Positions 29,172 to 64,000 of a DNA stretch of 64,000 bases are shown one piece after another. A program made the translations under genes and the position numbers. Source of the DNA: Escherichia phage ERS-1; the sequence record PP337211. One strand, written 5' to 3'. Positions within the stretch are counted from its first letter, which is position 1, and the number at the start of each line of letters is the position of its first letter. The notes below the pieces were generated by a model. That model searched no databases. It saw only the letters and a list, made by a program, of their open reading frames with translations, and had not been told where the DNA came from.

Positions 29172-30191
29172 TGTGTTGCCTCTACATATAACTGATTTGC
29201 ATATTGAATAAGTGCTTCGCGGTCAGAATCAGTGATGTCTGGAATTGCATTAATGTATTCTTCCATCAACGTCTGAAGAGATTGAACTTCAACTTCTTCA
29301 CTATCATCTGACTCGACAGAGTTATCAATCTTTGACACAACTCGTAATGAATGCACAACTTTTTCTAGTTCAGATTCGAACTTCGTTAGATTTTTGTCTA
29401 CTTCAGTTACTATAACACGTACTGATAGATTTGTAAAATCTTTATAGTCAATTTTTCCCTTAAATGGATATTGAATTCGACGATGCCAGGTGGTGTTGTT
29501 TGGAATAAATTCCATTCGTTCTGTTTCTGTATCAAACATCCAGAACCCGCGAGGGTCATTCTCGTCACCTGCAGTTAGTGTCCATGGTGTCCCAATATAT
29601 CTGACGTTAGCAGCCTCAGAGATAGTATGGAAGTGACCAGACCACACCTCTTTATAAGTCTTAAGGAAATCAGGTTCAAGACCGTGAGATTTCATTCCTT
29701 TATAAAAATAAAATCCATTCAGTTCCCAGTGACCAACACAAAAAGAAGCAGATGAAGTTTTGATGTGTTCAAGAATTTCACCAGTATTTTCTTCACACAT
29801 CCAAGGAATTAAATCAATCAAACATCCGTCAAAATCTACTGTAGTAGGCTTATCATATACTTTAACATTAGGATATTTAGCCAAAAGCTCAGTAGAGGCA
29901 TTTGGATGCATTACATTTTTATAGTGGAGATCGTGATTTCCTACAATAGTGTGTAATGTAGACAATTCCAGCATCATCAAGCGTTTGAACTATTTCACGA
30001 GCAAACTCCATAGTTTTATGTGTGATTGCTTTTCGCACATCAAAAATATCACCGTATTGAATCCAGGTAGTAATTCCATTTTTCTTAGAATATTCTATCG
30101 CTTGCTTAATTCCGTCAATTTGAATACCGCGAATCCACTCATCATCAGCTTTAACGCCTAAATGCCAATCACCTAAATTTAAAATTTTCAT
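29168..30191 (-). CDS. 47: Recombination nuclease subunit gp47 (SbcD/Mre11-like metallophosphoesterase), one frameshift
   Basis: N-terminal ORF MKILNLGDWHLG (phosphoesterase motif I), downstream ORF with ..VGNHDLHY.. (GNHD motif); total ~340 codons. Confidence 0.85.
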
Positions 30192-30206
30192 GGTGTCTTT
30201 TCCATC

Positions 30207-30900
30207 CTAATTTAGCTGCTTTTGAAACCAGTTCTTTAATTTTTCCTTTGTCCATTCAGGACCAGGAGGTTCATGACATAACATTTGCTTAACTCCGTTA
30301 TTATACCATTTTTTACCTTTATTATGTGATGAAGCTTTAAATTTATTTGACCTTCCTTTTACATAACCTTCTGAATATAAGGCAAAAAGGGCAGATTTTC
30401 CTGTTAATGGATCATGTGAATGTATATTTCCTTTACAATTATGAGAACCATATAATGGATGATTTTTGTCCTTTATTATCTCTTCCAAATGAACCTTTTG
30501 GAGCAGCATATGACATATTAAAGAATAATGGATTTTTAACTGCATCATGCAATCGTTGATAATATAACTCGCATTTAATAGCTTCTTCACGCGTATCAAA
30601 TTCAGCTAAAATGCATGAATCAAATAAGTGAGGATTATCTGAAAGCTCTTTATTATAAATTTTCTTATACTTTTTAGATAAAAACTGAACCATGATATCC
30701 AGCTAAATGCCTATCTAAAGACGTAGATCCAATATAAAAAGGAGGAAGTTTATCTCCACTATATATTGTTAAATAAGTTATATATTTTTCATATATCAAG
30801 AACCGTCATTGAAATGCAAAATAAAATTATTGAAATAAATCCATCTGGAGTGCTAAAGAACCCAATCCAACATGCTCTGGTGAATAGATAAAATGCAAGA
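30207..30900 (-). CDS. Homing-endonuclease-like protein (GIY-YIG/Seg-type features), frame-disrupted
   Basis: ORF 30439-30693 ends in a GIY-YIG-domain-like segment (..AEFDTREEAIKCELYYQRLHD..); ORF 30207-30599 carries a KxWYNNG-type motif common in phage GIY-YIG endonuclease linkers; free-standing position between 47 and a-gt. Confidence 0.35.
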
Positions 30901-36676: not shown

Positions 36677-36780
36677 CTTTTTTTTTTTTTTTAGGTGCTG
36701 TCGATTCTGTTTGTAGTCGTCTGTTTAACCTTAGCAATACTAACTGAACCAAGTACAAAACAGTCAATTGCTAAGGTTAA
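36677..36780 (+). repeat. Boundary repeat element E, copy A: T16 run, AGGTGCTGT, 23-nt segment, 14-bp inverted repeat with 28-nt loop; lacks the 3' CAGCACC arm
   Basis: Direct comparison with copies at 36,927-36,971, 57,689-57,776 and 57,996-58,128. Confidence 0.7.
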
Positions 36781-36819
36781 GTCAATTGCGTAGTGAAGTA
36801 AGAAAGTTGAAAAAATCAG

Positions 36820-36848
36820 TTTACATTGACGATGATTTTGATTACAAT
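36820..36848 (+). promoter_or_regulatory. Sigma70-type promoter candidate (TTTACA, 17 bp, TACAAT) pointing into high-GC block 1
   Basis: Read directly: -35 at 36820-36825, -10 at 36843-36848, 17-nt spacer; AT-rich context between repeat copies A and B. Confidence 0.4.
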
Positions 36849-36926
36849 ACTTCTCAACCAGTTTAAGTTTAAATTAATCTTTTGAGGTTTGTCGGAACAA
36901 TTTATATTAAACTGGTTCTTTTTAAA

Positions 36927-36971
36927 CAGGTGCTGTCGATTCCGTTTGTAGTCGTCTGTTTAACCTTAGCA
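36927..36971 (+). repeat. Repeat element E, copy B (5' half only): CAGGTGCTGT + CGATTCCGTTTGTAGTCGTCTG + TTTAACCTTAGCA; left terminus of high-GC block 1
   Basis: Differs by 1 nt from copy A over 32 nt; near-identical inverted copy at 57,689-57,720. Confidence 0.7.
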
Positions 36972-39900
36972 TATGTCTAATGTCGAAGCCACACACCACC
37001 GCCAGAGTTAAAGGATCGACTCCCATGGAACACCAGCACCTTCGGCATCAAGCTGAGCAAGATCTTCCCGTGGCTGGTTCAGGAAGGAGCTGCCGGGATC
37101 AATCGACTTCCCGTGGCGGACCTCCTCAACGCGCCCGGAAGGTGAACAGGCCTGCGCATGACCTTCGCCCAGCTCCGTCCAGGATGACCTGGCGGTGAAC
37201 GGTCGCCTTGGCGGGACGTTCAACCTGCTTCGCCGCCGGAAGGATGACGAAAGCGACGGGACCGCGGGCGCCGCCGCACGGGCGACTGTCCGTGAATGCC
37301 CGAACCTCCCTGGCCGGCTCGGCATGAGTTCGCCCTTCACGTGGTGGGGCCTTCCACCTCCCGGAGGAAGGCCGGGCGTCTGGGCGTCCGGACGATGTCA
37401 CCTGCCTGGAGCTGCGGCGGCGGCTCGTCACGCCTGCTCGGCGAAGGACCTGATTGGTGGGGCCTGGCTGTCTGGGTTGAAGCCCGGGACAGGTACTGTA
37501 CGAACACCGAGCATCCGAGGACCCTCCGGTGATGGTGGACATGGCGGGGATCAAGCGCAAGGACGCCAAAGGAAACTACCTGGGCCGTCCTACGGGATGG
37601 GCGGGGCGAAGATGTGCCTGGGCTCGGGCTCCCGACGATGATGGCCGTGCGCGGCCCCCGCTTCCGCTGTTCGACGCGGCACCTGCCCGGAGGGTCGGCG
37701 CCTGGTCGCGGAAGGGGCGCGGAGGTTCGAGGCCGCGGGGCCGGAGGGTCAGGCCCTCCTGGACACCCTCCACCCGGGTGCCCGTTCGCATCGGAGAAGC
37801 TGGCGAAGGCTTGCGAAGCCCGGGCGAAGGCCGTGGGCGGCGTCACATGACCTGAGCGGTCGCCGCTGCCGCTTCCCGAAGGAGGGGACGGGAACTACGA
37901 CTGGGACCCGGCGACCAACCGGCTGATCGGGCTCCTCCCGCGGACCGGGTCAAGATGGCGATGGTGGCCTGCGCGGAAGCCGGACTGGGGCGTCCCGGGG
38001 CCGGCGATGAGATCGCCTTCGGCTAGGCGAGGCGGAGGAGGCCGCGGAAGCTGCCTGGTTGCGGACGTGTACGCCGCCCCAACTCCCGTCAAGGTGGACG
38101 TGGAGATTGGGCAGGCTGGGGTCATCGCTTGGGCTGGACGGGAGCCGCCTTTGCGGTTCCGCTACGGGTGACGTGGGTGTCGGCTCACTCGTTTGCGGAT
38201 CGCTGCGGGTGTACCCGCTCGACCCCGCAGGAAGTCCGGGCGAACCCCTGGAGAACGATATGCGCCGTGGCAACGACAGCGTCCGTGGACCTCGAAGTGT
38301 TGGCGAGCGTGAGAAAGGGGGCCCTGGTCGACGGCGGCGGTGAGGAGGAAGTCTGGATGCCGGGTTGGTGTCCGCGCGGTCGAGAAGAAGGGCCTGCGGC
38401 CACCTGGACCGTCACCGAATGGATCGCCGGGTCAGAAGGGGCTGATATGAATGATCGCTGTGCGCTGGGAAGTTCTGGGCGGCGATGATCTGGGAGGCGG
38501 TCCTGGTCTGGCTCCTGGTAGGCGGTTGCCGGTGGACGCCTTCGAGTCCTTGACCTGGCCTCCTGCTGGGCGGCACTTCCTCGGAACGTTGCCCGGTTTC
38601 CGCTGAAGGAGGAGGTGAAATGAGCGAACGTCAAGACCGCCTGGGACCGCCGCGATGTTGGGCTGGCCGGTCGTCGCGGGCTGGAAGGGGTGATCAAGGT
38701 CGGAGCCGTCCTGGTCGGCCGGGCGGTGGCGCGGCTTCGACCGGGTTCAACGGCTTCCCGCCCGGTGCGATGACTCGCCGGAGCTGTACGCTGACCGCGG
38801 TGTACCTGCCGTCGGTGGCGGAGGCGTTGGCTCTTTAGGCTCGCCTGCGACGGCTTCGCTCTACATTCTTTCCCTGCTGTCCGAACTGTATGGAGGCCGC
38901 GGGGAAGGCGGGCGTGAAGCGGGTCGCCTTCCCGGTCGACTACGGGCTGCGATCCGGGGTGGGTTGCTGAGTGGAATTCGACGGTTGATGAGGCTTTGGA
39001 AGTCGCCCGCCGTTAGGGGTTGAAGCGAGGTGGGTAGATGTCTGAAGCCGGGCGCGGGACTCCCTCCGCCCCGTCATCCGGTCGCTGGACCCGGTGCGCG
39101 TGGAGAACCCCTTTCGCGCCCGGGACCCCGGATGTGAACTATGCCGGGCTGGATTGAATTGAAGTTCGCTGAACGCTGGCCGCCCTGGGCGGACCGCTTC
39201 CGAGTGGACCGACTCCACCTGCCCAGCACCTGGCTCACCCGTCGCCGGGTGCCGGGGCCGGGCCTTCCTCCTGCTGAAGGTCGGGAGACGGAGTGGTTGC
39301 TGATTCGATGGAGCGGTGGCCGCTGCGACGCCGGGCCGGGTTCCGCGAGAACGCCTGTATGAGGTCTGCGCTGCCGTTGGATGCCTTCCAGAAATGAGGA
39401 GATTTGTAAATGTCGCCGCGGTGAGGCGGGCGGAAGGTGAAAGCCCACCGCTACACCGCCGCTGGCAGGGTTGAACCAAATTGAGGCCGCGAAGGAGTAC
39501 GGGGTCCTTGCACCGCTACCGTGATGGGAAGCGGACCGCCGCCTGGACGATGAACCGTGCCTGTCCCGGCGAGGTCCGAGCCCGAGGTCTGCTTGCTGTT
39601 CCGCCGCCGCTCGGGCAAGACCTGCGCGAAATCGCCGCCGCTCTGGGCTGACTCGCCTCGGGTTGTCCAGATGGCAGGACGGAAAGCGCCGGTTGAGCGC
39701 CTTCGTGAATATTGGGGCTTTTGAGGGGGATCGGAAATGGCGGAACTGCCGAAGTGGAGACGAGGATGGTTGACTTCCTGAAGAAGCGGTGCCGGAGGGG
39801 CCGTGGGTCCTGACGGCCATCGTCCGGACGGGAAAACGGAGACGGTACCGTCTTGTTGCCCACTGCTTAAGGCCGCGGAGTGGATCGAGGGCATCAGGGC

Positions 39901-54648: not shown

Positions 54649-55479
54649 AAAGGGCTGTTTTATATGGCCTTTTTGCCCGCTTGACTTTTTACTTTTTCGG
54701 ACGTGGAAGTGAAGCGCGACCCCTCGAACCTAAGCGGAGGACGCCGCGTGCCTGCTTGGGTCTGTTGCCCGTCGCTCCCGCGCCTCCCCCGCGGGCGAGC
54801 GCGACCCGCCCTTGGCGAACGCAGGCTTCGCCAGACTCGCGGCGAGGATGTCCTTGGGCGTGAGGCCGGGACGGATCGCCGCGTGATGCGCGATTGACGG
54901 GCGGTGCTGCCCAAGGGGGAGGTGATGTGCCCATTGAGAAACTGAAGCCGAAGCCGATGGTGCCCTTGCCCTTGGATGGAAGCAGTACCTGGAGTTGTTC
55001 CGCACGTCCCGACCTGGGTGGGTGGAAGTACCGTGCGCGGAGGCGTGGGCGTCTCCGGCTCCGCCGTTCCACTATGCCGTTGAAGAATGACCCGGAGTTT
55101 GCCCTGGCTCTGCAGGACGCCCGCCAAGCGTGGATTGATGAGATCCTGTTGCGCGGCCCTGAAGCGGGCGCGGGACGGCGCGGCAGCGCCCGATCGGTCG
55201 GGGAAGTTCAAGGACGAAATTATTGGATGAGCGGGTGTACTGTGATTCGCTGATGGCCTTGACGCTCCGCGCCCGCCGTGCGGAGTTCGGGAGGACGGGA
55301 GGACGTGGCCTGTATCACTGCCCTCGGCCCGGTGGGCGCCGATCGTCCCGGGCCCCGGCGTCGACCGGACGACTGGGAATTGTTTGGGACCTCGCCCGCG
55401 GGACCGTGGGCCGTCCGACCGGGAGGGCGATGTTCGCCTGGTCCCAAGCGGGCAGGCGGTTGCCATCGCCGCCCGCCCG

Positions 55480-56072
55480 GACTACCCGATCGAGCGGCGC
55501 GAGGCGGAGCCCGGCGAGCTGCGGGCACCACGTGGACCCGGAGACGGGAAGGAGTCGGAGGCGACCTGGTGCGGGTACGGGTTGCAGCTCGCCTTCCTCG
55601 GCGTCCCGATCTTCGAGGTGCTGTATGAGGGGACGCGCGGCCCGGGCAAGACCGACTGCCGATGGACTTCCTCCAGCACGTGGGGAAGGGCTACGGTTGG
55701 AGCGGCGGGGTCCCCGTTCCGTCTGGCAGGGACCCCCGCTGTCGGACGTGATCAGACACAAAACCAACAAGTGGTTCAAGCGTTTCTTCCCGGCTAAGTA
55801 CAGGCAAGGTGGGTTGGCGACCTTCCCGGCACGGCGAGGAGCTGCTGCTGTGTCGGCGGTCGCCGGAGGATTATTGGAACTACCCACGGCCACGTGCCCG
55901 TGGATTGGCTGGGAAGAACTCTTGGGCTGGGCCTGACAGCGCCACCGTTGCGACGTCCTGCCGCCGCTCCCAAGCCGGGGATGCCCCGCCGCGACCCGGG
56001 CGACCGGCCCCACGGCCCCGCCCCTGGCTGGGTCAGGCCCGCTCCCGCCTCCCCCGTTGCGCGGTCGGGTGA
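55480..56072 (+). CDS. Candidate P-loop NTPase, frame-disrupted; function unassigned
   Basis: Walker A-like GTRGPGKT at 55,630-55,653 in context ..GVPIFEVLYEGTRGPGKTD..; protein-like continuation in other frames (..FLQHVGKGYGWSG.., ..LSDVIRHKTNKWFKRFFPAKY..). Boundaries arbitrary. Confidence 0.2.
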
Positions 56073-57688
56073 TCCTGGACGCGATGCGAGACGGCGAGCG
56101 CGAACCGCCCCGGGTCGCCTTCCCGGTTCCTTTCCCATGAGAACCGGGTTGCTCCTCGCTGACCCGGAGGGCCTGGTATTCGAGCCGCGGCCCGGAACCC
56201 CTCCGACTCGCCGCCTGGCTCCACGGCTCCTGCAGGTTGTTTGCGGGAGGATGTTGTACGAGGCTTGCACCGCGGGACGCACCGCGGCGCCCTCCGTCCC
56301 GCTGTCGGTGATCCCGAAGCGGTGGAAGATCGACCTGCGGCTTCCACCGGGCCGGAGCCCTTTGCCGTCCTGTGGTGGGCGGAGTCGAATGGGAGCCGTT
56401 CGAGCGGAATGGCCGCGTGTACGGAAGGTGCGGGGGCGATCTGTACCTGATCCTGTAGCGGGTACGGCTGGAACGGGAACGCGAGCAGGGCGTCCTGCGG
56501 CTCGCCTCGGAGGTCGCCCAGTGGGTGAAGGACCGGGAGGAGGATTGGGCGCTGGAAGGTCGGGTCAGCCCTGGCCCCCGCGACCTTCTCCTCACGTGGA
56601 GGTATGGGGCCTGGATTGCTGTGGAGGCGGAGAGAGGGTGTGCGCCTGGACGCCCGCGGGAGGCTGGGCTCGCGGGTGGGCTGGGAGGGGTTGGCTGTCG
56701 GAGGGCGCTGCCTCCGGCGGCGGGGACCGCGCCAGGTCCCTGGGCTGTTCGGTTTTTTCGACCCGTGCTGGTGTCGTCCAGACGGTCCCGCGCTGCCCCG
56801 CGATGAGGTGTACCTGGGATGACGTGAAGGCGGAGGCGGAGGACCGGTTGGTGACGCGACCGCTACCGCGTGCGGGGTAAGCTGCGTGGTGCGGTGGTGG
56901 CCCGCAGAGGCTCGGCCGGGTCCTCGCCTTCGGGCGAGAATCCGCGAACCTGGAGAACCGACGGCCGGCGAGACGGCAGCCCTGCCGACCTGCGGGGCGT
57001 ATTAACCGCGCTCCCGCGCTGGCCCACGCTCCAGACGCCGCCTGGGCGGGACCGAAGGGCGCGCGAGGCGGGCGAGACGTACCTACCCCGCCCTCGGAGG
57101 AGACGGCAGGGTGGGCTATCGGGAGCGCCTGGCCTCCGCCGCTCCTCCTCGGCGGTTGAACCTGGGCGCCTGGACCTGCCCTGCAGCGGAGCCCTTTGCC
57201 AGCCGATCAAGCCGGCCAGGACGTGCCCGGAGGCGATCCAGGAGATGATCCTGCCTGACGTGGACCTCCTGGGGCTGCCCACGCGTTCGCCCGTCCTGTG
57301 GTTCCGCCAGCCTATCCGGTGAGGCCCTGGCCTCCTCGTCCAGACCGCCTCGCCCGGCCCCGCGGAGGATGGCCTACCCGGACCTGGCGGATGACCGCCG
57401 GGAGGGCCTGCGCCCTGACTGGGTGATGATCCAAGCCGGAGGCGCCCGCTGTTGGCCCGGTCGGAGGTGATCAAATGGGGCCCGAGTCCTCTGCGTGCTG
57501 CTGTCCAAGTTACGAGGCGGAGGCAGGACGGCTTCGCGCAGGCTTGGGAGCGCTGTCCGCGTCCTGGAGCTGGGCCTTGTCCCGGCTCTGGCAGCCGGTG
57601 AGAAGTTGGTGGTCCCGCAAGGAGGAGTGGGTGCTGGCGGATGAGCGGGCCATGGGGCTGAACCACGTCCCTGTGGTTGCCTTTACGC

Positions 57689-57776
57689 CAGACGACTACA
57701 AACGGAATCTACAGCACCTGAGTATGTATTGCTAAGGTTAGAGGGAAACACGATAGAATCCAACAGCACCTAAAAA
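57689..57776 (-). repeat. Repeat element E copies D2 (57,689-57,720, right terminus of block 1, inverted relative to copy B) and D1 (57,721-57,776, 5' half plus inner-stem arm), both in reverse orientation
   Basis: Reverse complement reads TTTTAGGTGCTGT-TGGATTCTATCGTGTTTCCCTC-TAACCTTAGCAAT-ACATACT-CAGGTGCTGT-AGATTCCGTTTGTAGTCGTCTG. Confidence 0.7.
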
Positions 57777-57995
57777 GGTTCAACTTTTTACTAAATAATA
57801 AATGTTGTAGTATCTTCTTAAAACGAAAAATTTAATTTGCTTTAAAACCTTCCCAATTTTTTTTGCCTTTTTTTAACATACGTCAGAACATGGAAGAATG
57901 GTGGCCGTTTTTTACACTGTGAAGAAACAATTTTGAACTTTTAAATGACTTCCATTTATATTGTTTTAATTTCCTTTTTTCCCGTTTGTTGTTAA

Positions 57996-58128
57996 TTTTT
58001 TTTTTTAGGTGCTGTTCCGGATTTATCGTGTTTCCTGATTAACCTTAGCAATACGTAACTGAACGAAGTACATAAAAACACCAATTGCTAAGGTTAAAAG
58101 GTTACACAAACCCTGGACAAGCAGCACC
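57996..58128 (+). repeat. Repeat element E, complete copy C: T11, AGGTGCTGT, 23 nt, TTAACCTTAGCAAT, 31-nt loop, ATTGCTAAGGTTAA, 24 nt, CAGCACC; abuts high-GC block 2
   Basis: Nested inverted repeats (outer 7 bp GGTGCTG/CAGCACC; inner 14 bp) read directly; loop similar to copy A loop. Confidence 0.7.
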
Positions 58129-61100
58129 CTCCCTTTGCGGTGTTCTCCGGCTCCGCCTTGTCCTTTGAGAGCGGAGGGGTGTCGCTTGTTGATGCAGCGG
58201 GCGATGGCGAACATGGACCAGAGGTGCGGGTGGTCCGCGAGGGCTGACGGATGCTTCTCGTCCGGTCCTGGTCCCACCCTTCCGGTTGGCTCCTGGAAGA
58301 TGTTGGGTACTGCCTGTTCCAGACCGGGTCCGCGGTCGGGCCGGGGCTTCCCGGCCTTGCGGTCCGGTAGATGTCGCGCCGGGCCTTCAAGGCGGCGACG
58401 TCGTCGACGCGCGGGGTGGTCGGTGCTGGGTCCTGGTCGGGCCCTCCGATGACGGCCTTGATGTCCTTCAGGGCCGTCTCCCTGTGGATGTCGCGGACCG
58501 TCTCGCCGTCCGCCAGGGCCTCCCGCGGACCTGGGCGATGGCGCGGTGCTTGTTGGTCCTTCCCTGGTCCTCCTCGACGGGCTTCCCGCCGTCGCGCTCC
58601 TGGATGTGCTTTGGCTTCCAGCGGCGTGTCCTGAAGGCCGGGTCGCCGCCGTTCGCCTTCGACCGCCACCCTGCGTTGGTACCTGTAGATGGTGCTGATG
58701 GCCGCCCTCAAACCTTACCGCCTTCACGTCCGGGTCCCGCCCAACCAGCTCCGCGACGGCCTTGGCGGCGGCTTGGGTCTTGATCCGGTCTGGGCCGGCG
58801 GTGGTCGCTCCGGCGGCGGCGGTGTAGTCCCCGATGATGGCGATGCCGTCCGGGGCGTGTTGCCGGGATCGGCTTGTGGTCCGGGGACGATGACGTTGAT
58901 GACGCGGGCGGATCGCGGGCCAGGCTGCGCGGGGGTGTGCTCTGCCGGAGCCGTATGCCCTGCCCGTCGATGTACTTCGGTTGGTTTTCCAGTTTGGTTG
59001 AAAACGGCGGAGCCGGAGCCCCCGCCTGGGGTTGCTGTTGGACCCTGCGCGATCGGATGATCTTGCGCTCGCCGCCGTCCTCCTCCGGCGGGGCTGGTTT
59101 CCCGACCTCTGAGTCTGGGCGAGCGGCCTTCGCCGCCCCAGGTTCCGAACCGCGGGCTCGGCTCGTCGTCGTCCGCGCGGTGGAGACCTGGCCGGTGGGG
59201 GGCGGCTTCCCCTCACCTCCTGGAGGGCTGGCCCGTCGGTCCGGGTGAAGGTTCGGGACGCGCTGGCCGTGGCGGCCCCGCGGCGATCATTTCACGCCTT
59301 CCAAAGCCAGTGCCGGTTCGCCGGTTCCGGGCTTCCCGCGGCGGTCCAGGCGTGTCGTCGCGTAGGTCGTTGCCGCGCTCCGTCGCCGGTTCGGTACCTG
59401 CCGGCGGGCTTCGACCCGGCACGGCTCGCGATGGTCTTTCCGGGCTCCGGCCTGGTTCTCCGCGGGCTGTCGGCGAAGGCTTTGGTGCGCCCCGGGCTGA
59501 ACCGCTTTTGGAGGTGTTCGATCATTGCTGGAGCCCTGCTGTAGCCCGCTTCCCGAATTTTGCGATTGCGTGGTCGTTGCCGACCGCGGCCTGGCGCTCG
59601 AAGCTGTGGCGGATGTCGTCGTGGGTGACGATCCCCGGGATTACCGGATTGACCTGATGGAGGTGTACATGCCCGACGCGCGCTCGCGATTTCGTCGGGA
59701 TGGTCCTGAAGGCTGATGGCCCCGGAGGCTCGTGCCGTTGTGGTCGTTGCCGGTGTTCGGTGACTTCTGGGCGTAGCTGTAGGGGTTCCGCTTCGGAGGT
59801 CGATGGCCGGATGGGGTAGCAGACGGCCGGGAAGAAGACTGGGCCGGGAGTTGGCGAAGGCTTCCGCCCCCGCCTGGGTGTTATGGGGCGCTTTGAAACG
59901 GTGAAGGGGTCCGTGAAGCTGGAGAAGCAGCCCGCGGCGGAGGTCCGGACTTCGAGAGGCATTTTGCGGACCTGCTCGCCGTAGTTCACCGGGACGCTGA
60001 TGAGGCCGGTGCCGCGGTAGCCCCGGAACCCGCTGTCGACGTAGAAGGCGCAACCCACTGTAGCCCCATAAGGCTCCGTCAGGATCGCCTCGCTGCAGGG
60101 GCGGGCGCGGGAGCCTCGCTTGTCGTTGTGCTTGTCCTGGCACCTGCCCTGAAGGGGCTTGGCGTTCGGGATGCGGATGTGCGGGAGGTAGGTGACGACC
60201 CTTTGAAGCCGGTAGGCCCAGCCCTTCACCTCCTTCTTGTCGTCTCTCCTTCGCGTTGCGGACCGTCCCCCCTGCCTTGCCGGAACTTCGCGCGCTGGCG
60301 CCGGTCCTGCACCCTTCTCCCCCATCGGGCCCGGAACTCCCGTTGGTTCGGTCCGGCGGCGAAATACTTGTAAGCCTCCTGAGCGGCTTCGCCGGTGCCT
60401 TCCTGCCCTTGCCTGCGTGGTCCGGTCATTCTCCTTCAACTGTGAAAAAAGTCTTGAGCGCCTTACCCGGAAGAAGTAAGCGGCGTTAATCGGCCCCGGC
60501 TCGCCACGTTGTTTCCGGGAGGTCCCCTGGCCTTCGCTCCTCCGAATGCCGGCGACCGGCGAACTGCCGGAACCGCGCGGCGACCCTTCCGCGTCATATC
60601 CTCCAGGTTGTCCTTTTGGGACCCGAGGGAACAAATGCTCGGGGTTGACGCACAACGGTCGGTCGCAGCGATGAACTTACGTTATCGCCGTCGGGATGGA
60701 CCGTCGAACCTGGCCGAAGGATAGCCGATGAGTGCCGTCTTAGTCTCATGTTGGCGTGCTGCTTATCATTGACTGGGAGCCGTTGGTTGGTCCCGTCTCC
60801 GGTCTTGATAGTGGGCGTCGAAGTAGGTGAGCCGGTCCGTCGATTACCCCATGTTCGGAATGATGGGGCGTGGGATGGACGAAGCCCGTTGAGCGGTTGC
60901 TGCGCTTTAGCTTTTGGGTTGGTAACGGGTTGGGGGAACGGGGCGGAGGCGTCCCGGGCTGCGTCCGCGTACCCGTAGCCCTCGTCGTATTACCGGTCAC
61001 CCGGTTGCCGGGTGCCTGGCCGCGGCCTTCCCCATGTACTCCCGGGTGGCGTCCTGGCTCTGCAGTATCCTTGTGGAGGATGACGTTGTAGTTGCGGGCC

Positions 61101-64000
61101 CGCCCCCTCCAAGCCCTCTTCAGTGCCCGGCGGCGACCGTCCCCGAGCTGAGACTGATGACCGGGGTCCCGGAGTCCGGGAGGTGCGGGGCGGTGCGGAC
61201 GGCCTCCGCGGGCGTTCTCCGTGATCGACTCCGGGAGCTTCGGGTGTTCGGCTGTAGCTGTCGTGGGAGTTCTCCCGTGCTTCTTGGCCGGACGGGGATC
61301 GCGGAGCGGCCCGCCGGCATGTCCAGGTCCGCCCCGAGCTGGCGAGCGCGCCCGCCGCCGGACGCGCGGGGCGTCCGCGGCCCCGTCGCGCTTGAAGCGG
61401 GGCCAGTAGTCCACGGCCTGTTTCCCAGCTGCTGGCAGGCGACCGCCCGGCCCGCCTTCGAGCGGTACGTGTCCGGCTGCCGATGGTGGTTCTTGTGGTC
61501 TCGATATGGGCGAGGCCCCGCCAATCTCGCTGAAGGACGGCACCGGGAGCGGGTGCTCTCCCCGCTTCAGGATCGGACCCCGTTGAGCGGGCGTTTGACC
61601 GGGCGTCGTTGACGACGTTGCTGCCTGGCGTGGTCGAGGAAGGCCCGTGCGGCGGAGGGCGGCCTGCCCGGTTCGAGCCCGCCGTCGATTTCCCGGATGT
61701 TGTTCCGTGGGTAGTGGCCGTTCGACGGTGGGGATTTTCCATTTACACAGCACCGTTCTACCTCTGCATGTTCGGCGGGTGGTTGCCCGGGTGGGCGGGG
61801 CGAGGTCCGCGAACCGCTGGTTTGCAGTCCGCCACCCGGACGCTTGATCGCCTCGCGCTTGGGCTTCGCGTTCTCCGGGTACTGTGAGCCTCGCGCTGCT
61901 CCGCGTTGCGGCCTTCTCCGGGTCCTTGAAGGTTAAGGCGGCGTCGTGCCGAAGTCGGCCGCACTTCACCGGTTCGACCTGTCCGCGATCTTGAAGCCGA
62001 TCCGGTCGGACCGAAGCCGTCGTGCTCCTGGGCGCGGGCGGAGACGGTGCGGAAGGGCAGGCGCTCCTCCGTCGCCCGGGCTCTCCCGTGCCCCGCCTCC
62101 GGGCGGTCGCCGTAGCGGGCCTGGAGGGAGGTTGCGGAGTCACGGTATCGGCCTGTAGCGGCGGTGCTCGCGTCCCCGGGGGCCTGTGCTCCCCCGGCGG
62201 GCGTCTCCTCCTCGTCGCGGGCCGCGACCTTCCCGGTGCGGCAACTCCTCGCCCTCCTCCACCAGGAAGGAGGCCACCCGGCGTGGTAGCTCCAGAATAA
62301 CCGAGGAGCCCGGGAGCTGCGGCACGGAGAAGTCCCCCGCCTCCTCCGCCCGAACCAGGGCCGTGTACACGGGTCCAGATCGCCGGTGGTGATCAGGTGT
62401 CGGCCGGGGTCGTCTCGATGTCCGGTCGCGGGGCAAGTTCTGCTCGGCTTTTTCTGGGTATGCGTGACTGATTTTCCCGGCTCAGGTCTTTGCGATGTCC
62501 GGTTCAGAGAATTGGCGACGAAGGAAGGCTCCGGCGGGACTTTTCGTCACGTGATACGGGAATGGACTTGTCTGGCGCCGCCGTCGCCGTCCTCCGTGAT
62601 CCCTGGTGAACCCGGCAGGAGCTTGAAGGGCTCCGTTCTGTATCCCCGCTCCGCCGGGCACCTGCCCGGCGGGGGTGCGGTGTGCGCTCCGAGGCTCCCG
62701 TTACCCTTGCCCTTGTCGGCCTGGCGGGTCTGGCGGGCGTCTGCCTTCGGCGGACTTTGCGGCTCGTGGGCCGGGATCGCGTGGCCTTCCGGGACCTCCG
62801 ACGTGGAACCGCTCGTGCCGTCCGCGTCGAAGGCGGAGCGGACCCCGCAGCCCTTTGGTCGCTTGTCCTGCTGAAGCCGGAGTGGGCGGTGGCTTCGGTC
62901 CTGGGCTTGTTGCTGCCCTTGGGCTTCGACCTGTTCGGCCGGTCCTCCTGTTTGGGCGGGACCCCCTACGTCGGGAGACGGCCGCTCCGAGCCCTCGCGG
63001 CGGGGGATCGGGGCGTGGCCCGGGCGGCAGGTTGGCGCCGCGCGGGCGCGGGCCTTCCTCCTCCGCGGACTTCGGAGCCTTCTGGGCCTTCGGAGGCGAC
63101 GGGCGGGGGTTGCGGTTTGTTTGCGGTTTCGACCTTCTGGGTTCGGCCTGCTGCTGCTCGGCACTTCCGGGCGCGCTTCGGCGGCGCCAGGCTTCTGTGT
63201 GGGGGTATGGCGGTGGTCTTGTCGGCAAGCGGTGGACGTTCGGGACGGACTTGCCGTTGCGGAAGGTGCCGATGACTTCGTCGGGACCTGCTCGACCGGG
63301 CCGGGCTGGACCTCGCTGGGAGGCTTCGGTGTAGGCGACGTTGTTGAAGTTGATGGTGTTCATGGTAGGCTCCTTCTGGGGTTGAGGTGCGATCTTGTTC
63401 GACCGTGAGAGAAATCTTAACCCTGCCCCCGAAGAAGTAAAGTGGTTTGACTAAACTTTTTCAGTTTCCCGTCCGAAGGCCAGGTGCCCGTTGGACGGCG
63501 GAGGGCGAACCGTTGGCGCCTCTTCCCAGAAGGCCCGGGCGGCGTCTCGTGCCCTGTTCTCCTGTACCAATGGTTGCGCCCCGAGGTGTGCGGGAACCCA
63601 GCGACCTCGAAGCCCCAGCGATGTTGGGTTGCACTGGTGGAAGTCCAGGTGCTGGGCCGGGTAGCCGAAAGCCTCTGCGACGTTCCGCCCAACGAGGATG
63701 ACGTGCCGACCGCCCAACAAGGGCTTCCCTCGCGGCTGCGGGCCCCGCGTCCCGGGCGGGCCGCTGTCGTCCCGCTTCCAGCGCCCCGGGAAGGTGTGGA
63801 GCAGGTGGTGCGGTCGAAGGTCTTGAGGTAGTCCTTGGGCGATAGGCCTGCCTGCTCGCCCGACGCCCTCCCGCGGAGGACCGCGGAGGGGAGCCAGGGG
63901 CCGGTCCGGGTCCGCGTTAGGTCCTGGCGCTGGCCGATCTGGGCTTGTTCGTTCTTTCGGGCACATTTCTCTGGGTGACGTTCTGTTTGAGGTCCGCTCC
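58129..64000 (-). other. High-GC block 2 (at least 5.9 kb, continues past window end): frame-drifting protein-like coding signal on the minus strand
   Basis: Minus-strand translations contain protein-like stretches (e.g. ..PDGIAIIGDYTAAAGATTAGPDRIKTQAAAKAVAELVGRDPDVKAVRFEGG.., ..AILTEPYGATVGCAFYVDSGFRGYRGTGLISVPVNYGEQV..); plus-strand ORFs are low-complexity. Confidence 0.5.
58440..59000 (-). CDS. Candidate protein-coding segment in block 2, frame-disrupted; function unassigned
   Basis: Protein-like segments in two minus-strand frames (..EALADGETVRDIHRETALKDIKAVIGGPDQDPAPTTPRVDDVAALKARRDIY.. and ..DGIAIIGDYTAAAGATTAGPDRIKTQAAAKAVAELVG..); no catalytic motif recognised; boundaries arbitrary. 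Confidence 0.2.

Follow-up and report, generated by a model that had tools for sequence, protein, structure and literature searches.

The window, that is, the whole 64-kb stretch of DNA that was analysed, carries between 54930 and 57688 three consecutive phage genes in the usual order TerS-TerL-portal. Within the TerL gene, the plus strand at 55630-55653 reads GGG ACG CGC GGC CCG GGC AAG ACC (GGGACGCGCGGCCCGGGCAAGACC) and encodes GTRGPGKT, a Walker A octapeptide that a sequence-only reading of 55480-56072 had singled out, with a packaging ATPase (terminase large subunit, TerL) as the first of several suggested identities. The motif was borne out both in its exact codons and at the DNA level, where the octapeptide codons and some 45 bases around them match the aligned TerL gene of phage PaTs-2 without a difference. 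The generic pattern GxxxxGK[ST] has five matches in total across all six frames of the 64-kb window and is by itself weak evidence for a P-loop, so that homology has to decide. Further matches in the high-GC DNA are GHRPDGKT (39815-39838, plus strand) and GTFRNGKS (63247-63270, minus strand), which are candidates for the P-loops of homologues of the primase-helicase or of ORF049, or else products of chance or error. The features of the locus are as follows.

54930-55430, plus strand: TerS gene, garbled, located by tblastn with PAE1 TerS (54930-55426), with 27 indel events relative to PaTs-2 TerS
55430-56908, plus strand: whole TerL gene, delimited by DNA alignment to the 1548-nt TerL gene of PaTs-2 (515 aa)
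55630-55653, plus strand: Walker A motif (P-loop) GTRGPGKT, identical to residues 71-78 of PaTs-2 TerL, as in a TerL ATPase
55895-55921, plus strand: Walker B-like strand with an acidic pair, CPWIGWEEL, placed by alignment to the PaTs-2 TerL coding sequence
56965-57688, plus strand: 5′ part of the portal gene, cut at the end of a library molecule; the start is approximate and the PaTs-2 alignment stops at 57688

For homology searches, a 123-aa fragment was assembled by joining three frames by eye (…VLYEGTRGPGKTD-LPMDFLQHVGKGYG…WFKRFFPAKY…HGEELLL…PEDYWNYHGH…PWIGWEEL…). In a tblastn search against GenBank phages, this stitched fragment matched 423 records, and the best matches, annotated 'terminase large subunit', were 70% identical over the full fragment (E 3e-40 to 6e-40) and belong to the Pseudomonas phages PAE1, PaTs-2, BL4 and their relatives (Yuavirus, Mesyanzhinovviridae). 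PAE1 proteins aligned to the window by tblastn, each in several frames, place TerL at 55453-56893 and residues 20-250 of the portal protein at 57005-57693. The segment 55480-56072 corresponds to about residues 17-215 only of the 515-aa TerL, and the alignment of the gene as a whole extends as far as residue 510 of 515 and takes in the FDWG and GDAIRY segments. Residues 163-171 of PaTs-2 TerL read YPWIGWEEL, of which WIGWEEL is conserved in the window copy; by analogy with TerL ATPases in general, this segment is the putative Walker B strand with the presumed catalytic acidic residue.

In profile searches against PHROGs, the intact PaTs-2 TerL matched phrog_2 (2.8e-36) and phrog_979 (8e-30), both 'terminase large subunit', and the frame-corrected window protein matched phrog_979 under the same annotation (E=1.6e-6), so that the frame-corrected homology search proposed as a check did return a P-loop family; the stitched fragment gave a single spurious weak match in this database. 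The intact PaTs-2 TerL aligned to positions 2-208 of the 215 in the Pfam profile Terminase_6N at 18.3 bits, below the 22-bit curated cut-off, and Pfam yielded no match for the stitched 123 aa or the three raw ORFs and no significant match for the frame-corrected protein. NCBIfam contained nothing for intact TerL or TerS, and a PDB sequence search (phmmer) was insignificant (E=0.74), with no match to a profile or structure of the RNase H-like nuclease domain expected at the C-terminus of a TerL. A protein-database search with the stitched TerL recovered short partial proteins only, the best being a 190-aa 'terminase family protein, partial [Staphylococcus aureus]', 69% identical to the window TerL and encoded on a 1.3-kb contig; this record is probably a contaminant or mislabelled.

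Judged by this homology, GTRGPGKT forms the ATP-binding loop (P-loop) in the TerL of a Pseudomonas siphophage of the Yuavirus type, and the packaging ATPase put forward first by the sequence-only reading was the correct choice (tblastn E ~5e-40 with 70% identity to PAE1-like TerL). By the mechanism established for this protein family, TerL would partner TerS and bind at the portal, hydrolysing ATP at its Walker A and B sites to push DNA into the procapsid, and a C-terminal nuclease would cut the concatemer.

The protein-like continuation in other frames that had been remarked upon is real, since alignment with the intact homologue shows 32 indel events within 55480-56072, and 27 of these shift the frame. 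Over the full 1548-nt gene, the window copy differs from PaTs-2 TerL by 88 indel events and 155 mismatches, and with 78 of those indels frameshifting, an intact TerL ORF is absent from the window; after frame correction, 359 of 516 codons are identical and one in-frame stop remains. Across the Yuavirus blocks, deletions exceed insertions about 2-3 to 1, long runs of perfect identity to PaTs-2 alternate with short garbled patches, and substitutions are spread flatly over the three codon positions (475/435/415, p=0.12). Substitutions in the T4-like part fall mostly at third positions (96/41/518, p=3e-136), an excess that is ordinary divergence under selection. The indels in TerL are attributed to sequencing error, which is silent on the state of the gene in the phage and does not make it a pseudogene. 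Programmed frameshifting was considered and is excluded by the adapter, strand-asymmetry and codon-position results described below, and an RNA-editing-like A>G change fails because A also turns into T or C and is lost altogether in 10-15% of cases.

Beyond the locus, the window is divided by composition and by recurrent library sequences. GC content jumps sharply at ~37 kb, from 33% to 68%, and the high-GC part has dense frameshifts and no long ORFs. The segments and the junctions between them are listed here.

3-42, unstranded: window start, with the ONT native-barcode flank ATTGCTAAGGTTAA and BC03 (reverse complement)
44-36690, unstranded: T4-like molecule (Tequatrovirus) with 94-95.6% identity to Escherichia phage EC.W14-2
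36697-37041, unstranded: junction in which BC02, TTAACCTTAGCAAT and ligation adapter lead to a new flank (36697-36780), followed by a short T4-like fragment (36781-36925) and then by BC02 with its flank and a BC07-like barcode with CAGCACCT (36931-37041)
37042-57688, unstranded: Yuavirus molecule A, running collinear with the PaTs-2 genome between DNA polymerase A and portal, at ~82% raw identity with ~4% gap openings
57684-57767, unstranded: junction of BC02 (reverse complement) and CAGCACCT, 8 nt, then ATTGCTAAGGTTA, BC04 (reverse complement) and CAGCACCT
57768-58007, unstranded: short AT-rich molecule between two BC04 copies, weakly similar to a T4-like helicase-loader gene
58008-58128, unstranded: junction of GGTGCTG, BC04, TTAACCTTAGCAAT and adapter ACGTAACTGAACGAAGTACA, ~10 nt, then ATTGCTAAGGTTAA, BC05 (reverse complement) and CAGCACC
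58130-64000, unstranded: Yuavirus molecule B, PaTs-2-like over 58188-64000, in a genome orientation opposite to that of molecule A
59056-62405, minus strand: genes of molecule B, garbled, for a 'photolyase'-like, probable radical-SAM enzyme, a 'threonine dehydratase' and hyp43, with homologues in PAE1/PaTs-2

The two Yuavirus stretches are collinear with PaTs-2 over 20.6 kb and 5.8 kb, together ~26 kb of a ~62-kb genome, at a raw identity of ~82% in which errors mask the true value; true divergence from PaTs-2 is at most ~6%, as read at sites far from TG/CA. These segments end within genes (DNA polymerase A, portal and ORF055), and one of them is inverted.

The breakpoints were read directly and then scanned by fuzzy search for ONT strings, which identified BC02, BC03, BC04 and BC05 within <=5 edits together with their flanks, the match to BC07 being weaker. 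The 24-nt ONT barcodes are enclosed by AAGGTTAA and CAGCACCT, the flanks of the native-barcoding design. Ligation-adapter sequence (AATGTACTTCGTTCAGTTACGTATTGCT / GCAATACGTAACTGAACGAAGT) is present at 36732-36759 and 58043-58074, and adapters or barcodes stand at the window start and at every break in composition and orientation. The barcodes agree with the published ONT list (PMC9229804 Table 1), and the adapters with those published for ONT ligation reads. The string at 58008-58128 also occupies the outermost 30-64 bases, at the start or the end, of nine unrelated phage entries in GenBank (OQ790081, OR487170, OR809231, OQ378339, OP583592, OP583595, PQ641084, OQ790078 and OP272493), whose phages infect Klebsiella, Bacillus, Yersinia, Xanthomonas, Pseudomonas and Enterobacter. 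Its recurrence at the termini of these records indicates that it behaves as an untrimmed adapter, and that these public records keep nanopore adapter sequence.

Since library sequences lie at the breakpoints, the window consists of several library molecules read in succession, unsplit and untrimmed, rather than of a genome segment. It is a raw untrimmed ONT read, or a contig of raw-read quality; a window-specific 33-mer and the adapter string led to no source record in the viral, metagenome and genome contig collections, so the platform is inferred from sequence alone. At least five native-barcoded molecules were read in turn, namely the 36.6-kb T4-like molecule, two short pieces and a pair of Yuavirus fragments oriented opposite ways. 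A point against this account is the irregular barcode layout, in that the two ends of the T4-like molecule carry different barcodes, BC02 and BC03, and the barcode at 57684-57719 abuts the insert without a AAGGTTAA flank; the mixed barcodes and the missing flank may be ligation artefacts. Of the 240 nt at 57768-58007, 28% align at 87% identity to a T4-like helicase-loader gene and the remainder is low-complexity and T-rich, so this piece is probably a short read of poor quality. The frame changes and the high-GC block noted by the sequence-only reading are thus present, whereas a biological origin for them does not hold: the former are ascribed to nanopore read errors, and the latter to a separate library molecule joined via adapters.

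The T4-like part is also damaged, with the essential genes gp43, gp41, gp61, uvsX, gp45, gp46, gp47 and gp55 each split over 2-5 frames (1-4 frameshifts) and their segments mostly 88-100% identical at the protein level. Gap openings here amount to 0.3-0.6%, far below those in the Yuavirus DNA of the same read. T4-like DNA is expected to contain glucosyl-hydroxymethylcytosine, and its low gap rate despite this expected modification counts against the modification picture developed below. A segment of ~595 nt (30191-30786) is missing from EC.W14-2 and 98.5% identical in other T4-like phages; in these phages it sits next to gp47, and some records label it an HNH or homing endonuclease. Its presence reflects the natural insertion of a mobile element, not an artefact.

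In the Yuavirus parts, total error is ~18%, including the ~4% of gap openings, and its distribution is strongly uneven. On the plus strand of the window, reference A is substituted in 21-30% and deleted in 10-15% of cases, and G is affected in 4-6%. By dinucleotide on the same strand, error at the A reaches 72% in CA, against 9% in GA, 18% in TA and 30% in AA. In each of the four aligned blocks, errors hit the A of CA in 70-75% of cases and the T of TG in 18-27% (p 1e-19 to 1e-97), and this asymmetry is the same in molecules A and B although the phage orientations are opposite; it is not seen in the T4-like part. The damage therefore tracks the read strand and not phage transcription or replication, which rules out an evolutionary process. 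Error decays on both sides of CA to ~6% at >=8 nt, and no extended motif was found around TG at positions -4 to +5.

The direction of the read was deduced from the adapters. Read on the minus strand, a junction opens with an end adapter cut short (…TTAACCTTAGCAAT), continues through 8-10 junk bases and closes with a start adapter that is nearly complete ((A)TGTACTTCGTTCAGTTACGTATTGCT-AAGGTTAA), and in real ONT reads the start adapter is usually more complete than the end adapter. The read itself would therefore run along the minus strand, as the reverse complement of the window, with the T of 5′-TG-3′ on the sequenced strand as the base that is probably miscalled, the completeness of the start and end adapters being the sole basis for naming TG rather than CA as the affected dinucleotide. 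Expressed in this way, ~79% of the minus-strand 5′-TG-3′ sites (CA on the plus strand) in 37042-57688 and 58130-64000 are miscalled, TC sites have 9% error and no excess, and 32.6% of the T residues in the aligned PaTs-2 sequence stand before a G.

In phage M6, ~30% of T is replaced by 5-NedU, 5-(2-aminoethyl)-deoxyuridine (Lee et al. 2018, PMC5889632), and mapping by restriction resistance (Flodman et al. 2019, PMC6449724) implicated T before G and also before C. The nucleoside has a mass of 271 Da in M6, and the M6-type modification cluster consists of a 5-hmdU DNA kinase, a PLP enzyme and a radical-SAM isomerase. Homologues of the PAE1 genes for a 'DNA repair photolyase' and a 'threonine dehydratase' are located on the window minus strand at 59056-61618. 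The 'threonine dehydratase' is possibly the PLP enzyme of hypermodification. At ~58.4-59.0 kb, a putative kinase region aligns at the DNA level to a PaTs-2 stretch that includes PaTs2_66. In the M6 pathway, the radical-SAM isomerase gp53 models on spore photoproduct lyase (PMC8989533), and the photolyase-like gene of the window is plausibly its counterpart. Most likely, a 5-NedU-type T in 5′-TG-3′ on the strand passing through the pore would derail basecalling and give rise to the apparent frameshifts. We consider it somewhat better than an even chance that the error pattern is a single-molecule footprint of Yuavirus thymidine hypermodification, in which essentially every T of TG would be modified, irrespective of wider context, and TC would be unmodified. 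If true, this would refine the TG/TC specificity put forward on the basis of restriction data and point to which sequences the phage 5-hmdU DNA kinase prefers.

Several other explanations were weighed against these observations. The sequence-only reading had also allowed for a helicase or another P-loop enzyme, and the generic nature of the Walker A pattern and the silence of Pfam on the stitched protein would suit an NTPase other than a terminase; yet the fragment shares 70% identity with annotated TerL over 123 aa, the alignment spans the whole 515-aa TerL, the neighbouring genes follow the TerS-TerL-portal order and the PHROG matches are TerL families, so that TerL homology after frame correction excludes these options for all practical purposes. 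Next to no credence attaches to a natural recombinant phage with T4-like and Yuavirus DNA: the presence of both sequences in a single contiguous 64-kb window is what such a phage would provide, but what lies at the junctions is adapter and barcode sequence, the Yuavirus segments are interrupted mid-gene with one of them inverted, and the hosts differ (E. coli versus P. aeruginosa). It is also highly improbable that the high-GC block is a decayed phage remnant or acquired island in a low-GC genome, with TerL a real pseudogene. The GC step at ~37 kb from 33% to 68%, the dense frameshifts with missing long ORFs and the even codon-position substitutions, which neutral decay would give too, all fit that account; nonetheless, nanopore adapters or barcodes lie at each boundary, the low-GC part is itself a lytic T4-like phage with frameshifted essential genes, and the damage is limited to one strand and one dinucleotide, tracking the window strand and not gene or genome orientation, while perfect runs alternate with garbled patches in a way that uniform decay does not produce.

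A further possibility accepts the chimeric nanopore read but holds the excess Yuavirus error to be generic, arising from the high GC content, a basecalling model that performs poorly or a read that is simulated or of low quality, with no modification involved. High-GC DNA is harder to basecall, read simulators add the same ligation adapters, and the T4-like part, which is also expected to be modified, reads well. This account is nevertheless unlikely, though not negligibly so, as generic error would hardly depend on one dinucleotide on one strand (CA 72% versus GA 9%, TA 18% and AA 30%) with no further flank effect, the TG share of T matches the published share of modified T in M6, and the native-barcode flanks and mixed barcodes are unlike the default simulator adapters that have been described. 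Taken as a whole, the best explanation, to which we assign a probability of roughly 0.93, is that GTRGPGKT is the P-loop of a Yuavirus TerL whose gene appears broken by the errors of an unsplit multi-molecule nanopore read, with thymidine hypermodification at TG most likely behind the excess error.

The TerL is an ordinary member of a well-sampled genus, its biology is already known, and nothing in it is deviant once read errors are discounted. The window should be treated as a technical chimera of raw-read quality, in which GC blocks, broken genes and apparent pseudogenes are not biology, and the same caveat applies to any other finding made in it. What it still offers is that nanopore errors on native DNA appear to place M6-like hypermodified T at TG, a cheap readout; the footprint is in line with what has been published for TG and adds a little precision, since TC is without excess.

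Compared with known systems, the window gene is collinear over its full length with the TerL of Yuavirus phages (PaTs-2 QAX98743.1; PAE1 YP_009215693.1; relatives M6, YuA, MP1412, AN14, Lydia and SN1), with which it shares the identical Walker A motif and WIGWEEL, the same gene order, ~82% raw DNA identity and, in the stitched ATPase segment, 70% protein identity; it differs in its 78 frameshifting indels and one in-frame stop, which are attributed to read error. The T4-type TerL ATPase (Terminase_6N; PHROG 2 and 979) is likewise a P-loop packaging ATPase to which the PaTs-2 homologue aligns, but the latter falls below the 22-bit Pfam cut-off and is a distant member at best, and solved structures give no significant sequence match. 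The window resembles unsplit ONT native-barcoding reads in its AAGGTTAA-barcode-CAGCACCT flanks, in its ligation-adapter top and bottom sequences and in the succession of a truncated end adapter, ~8-10 nt and a near-complete start adapter, and departs from them in the combination of BC02 and BC03 within one molecule and in the barcode at 57684-57719 joined straight to the insert. With the 5-NedU system of M6, it has in common the genus, homologues of two modification-cluster genes and a TG share of 32.6% against ~30% modified T; whereas restriction analysis in the M6 literature suggested both TG and TC, TC in the window has no excess (9%) in what is an indirect error signature of modification.
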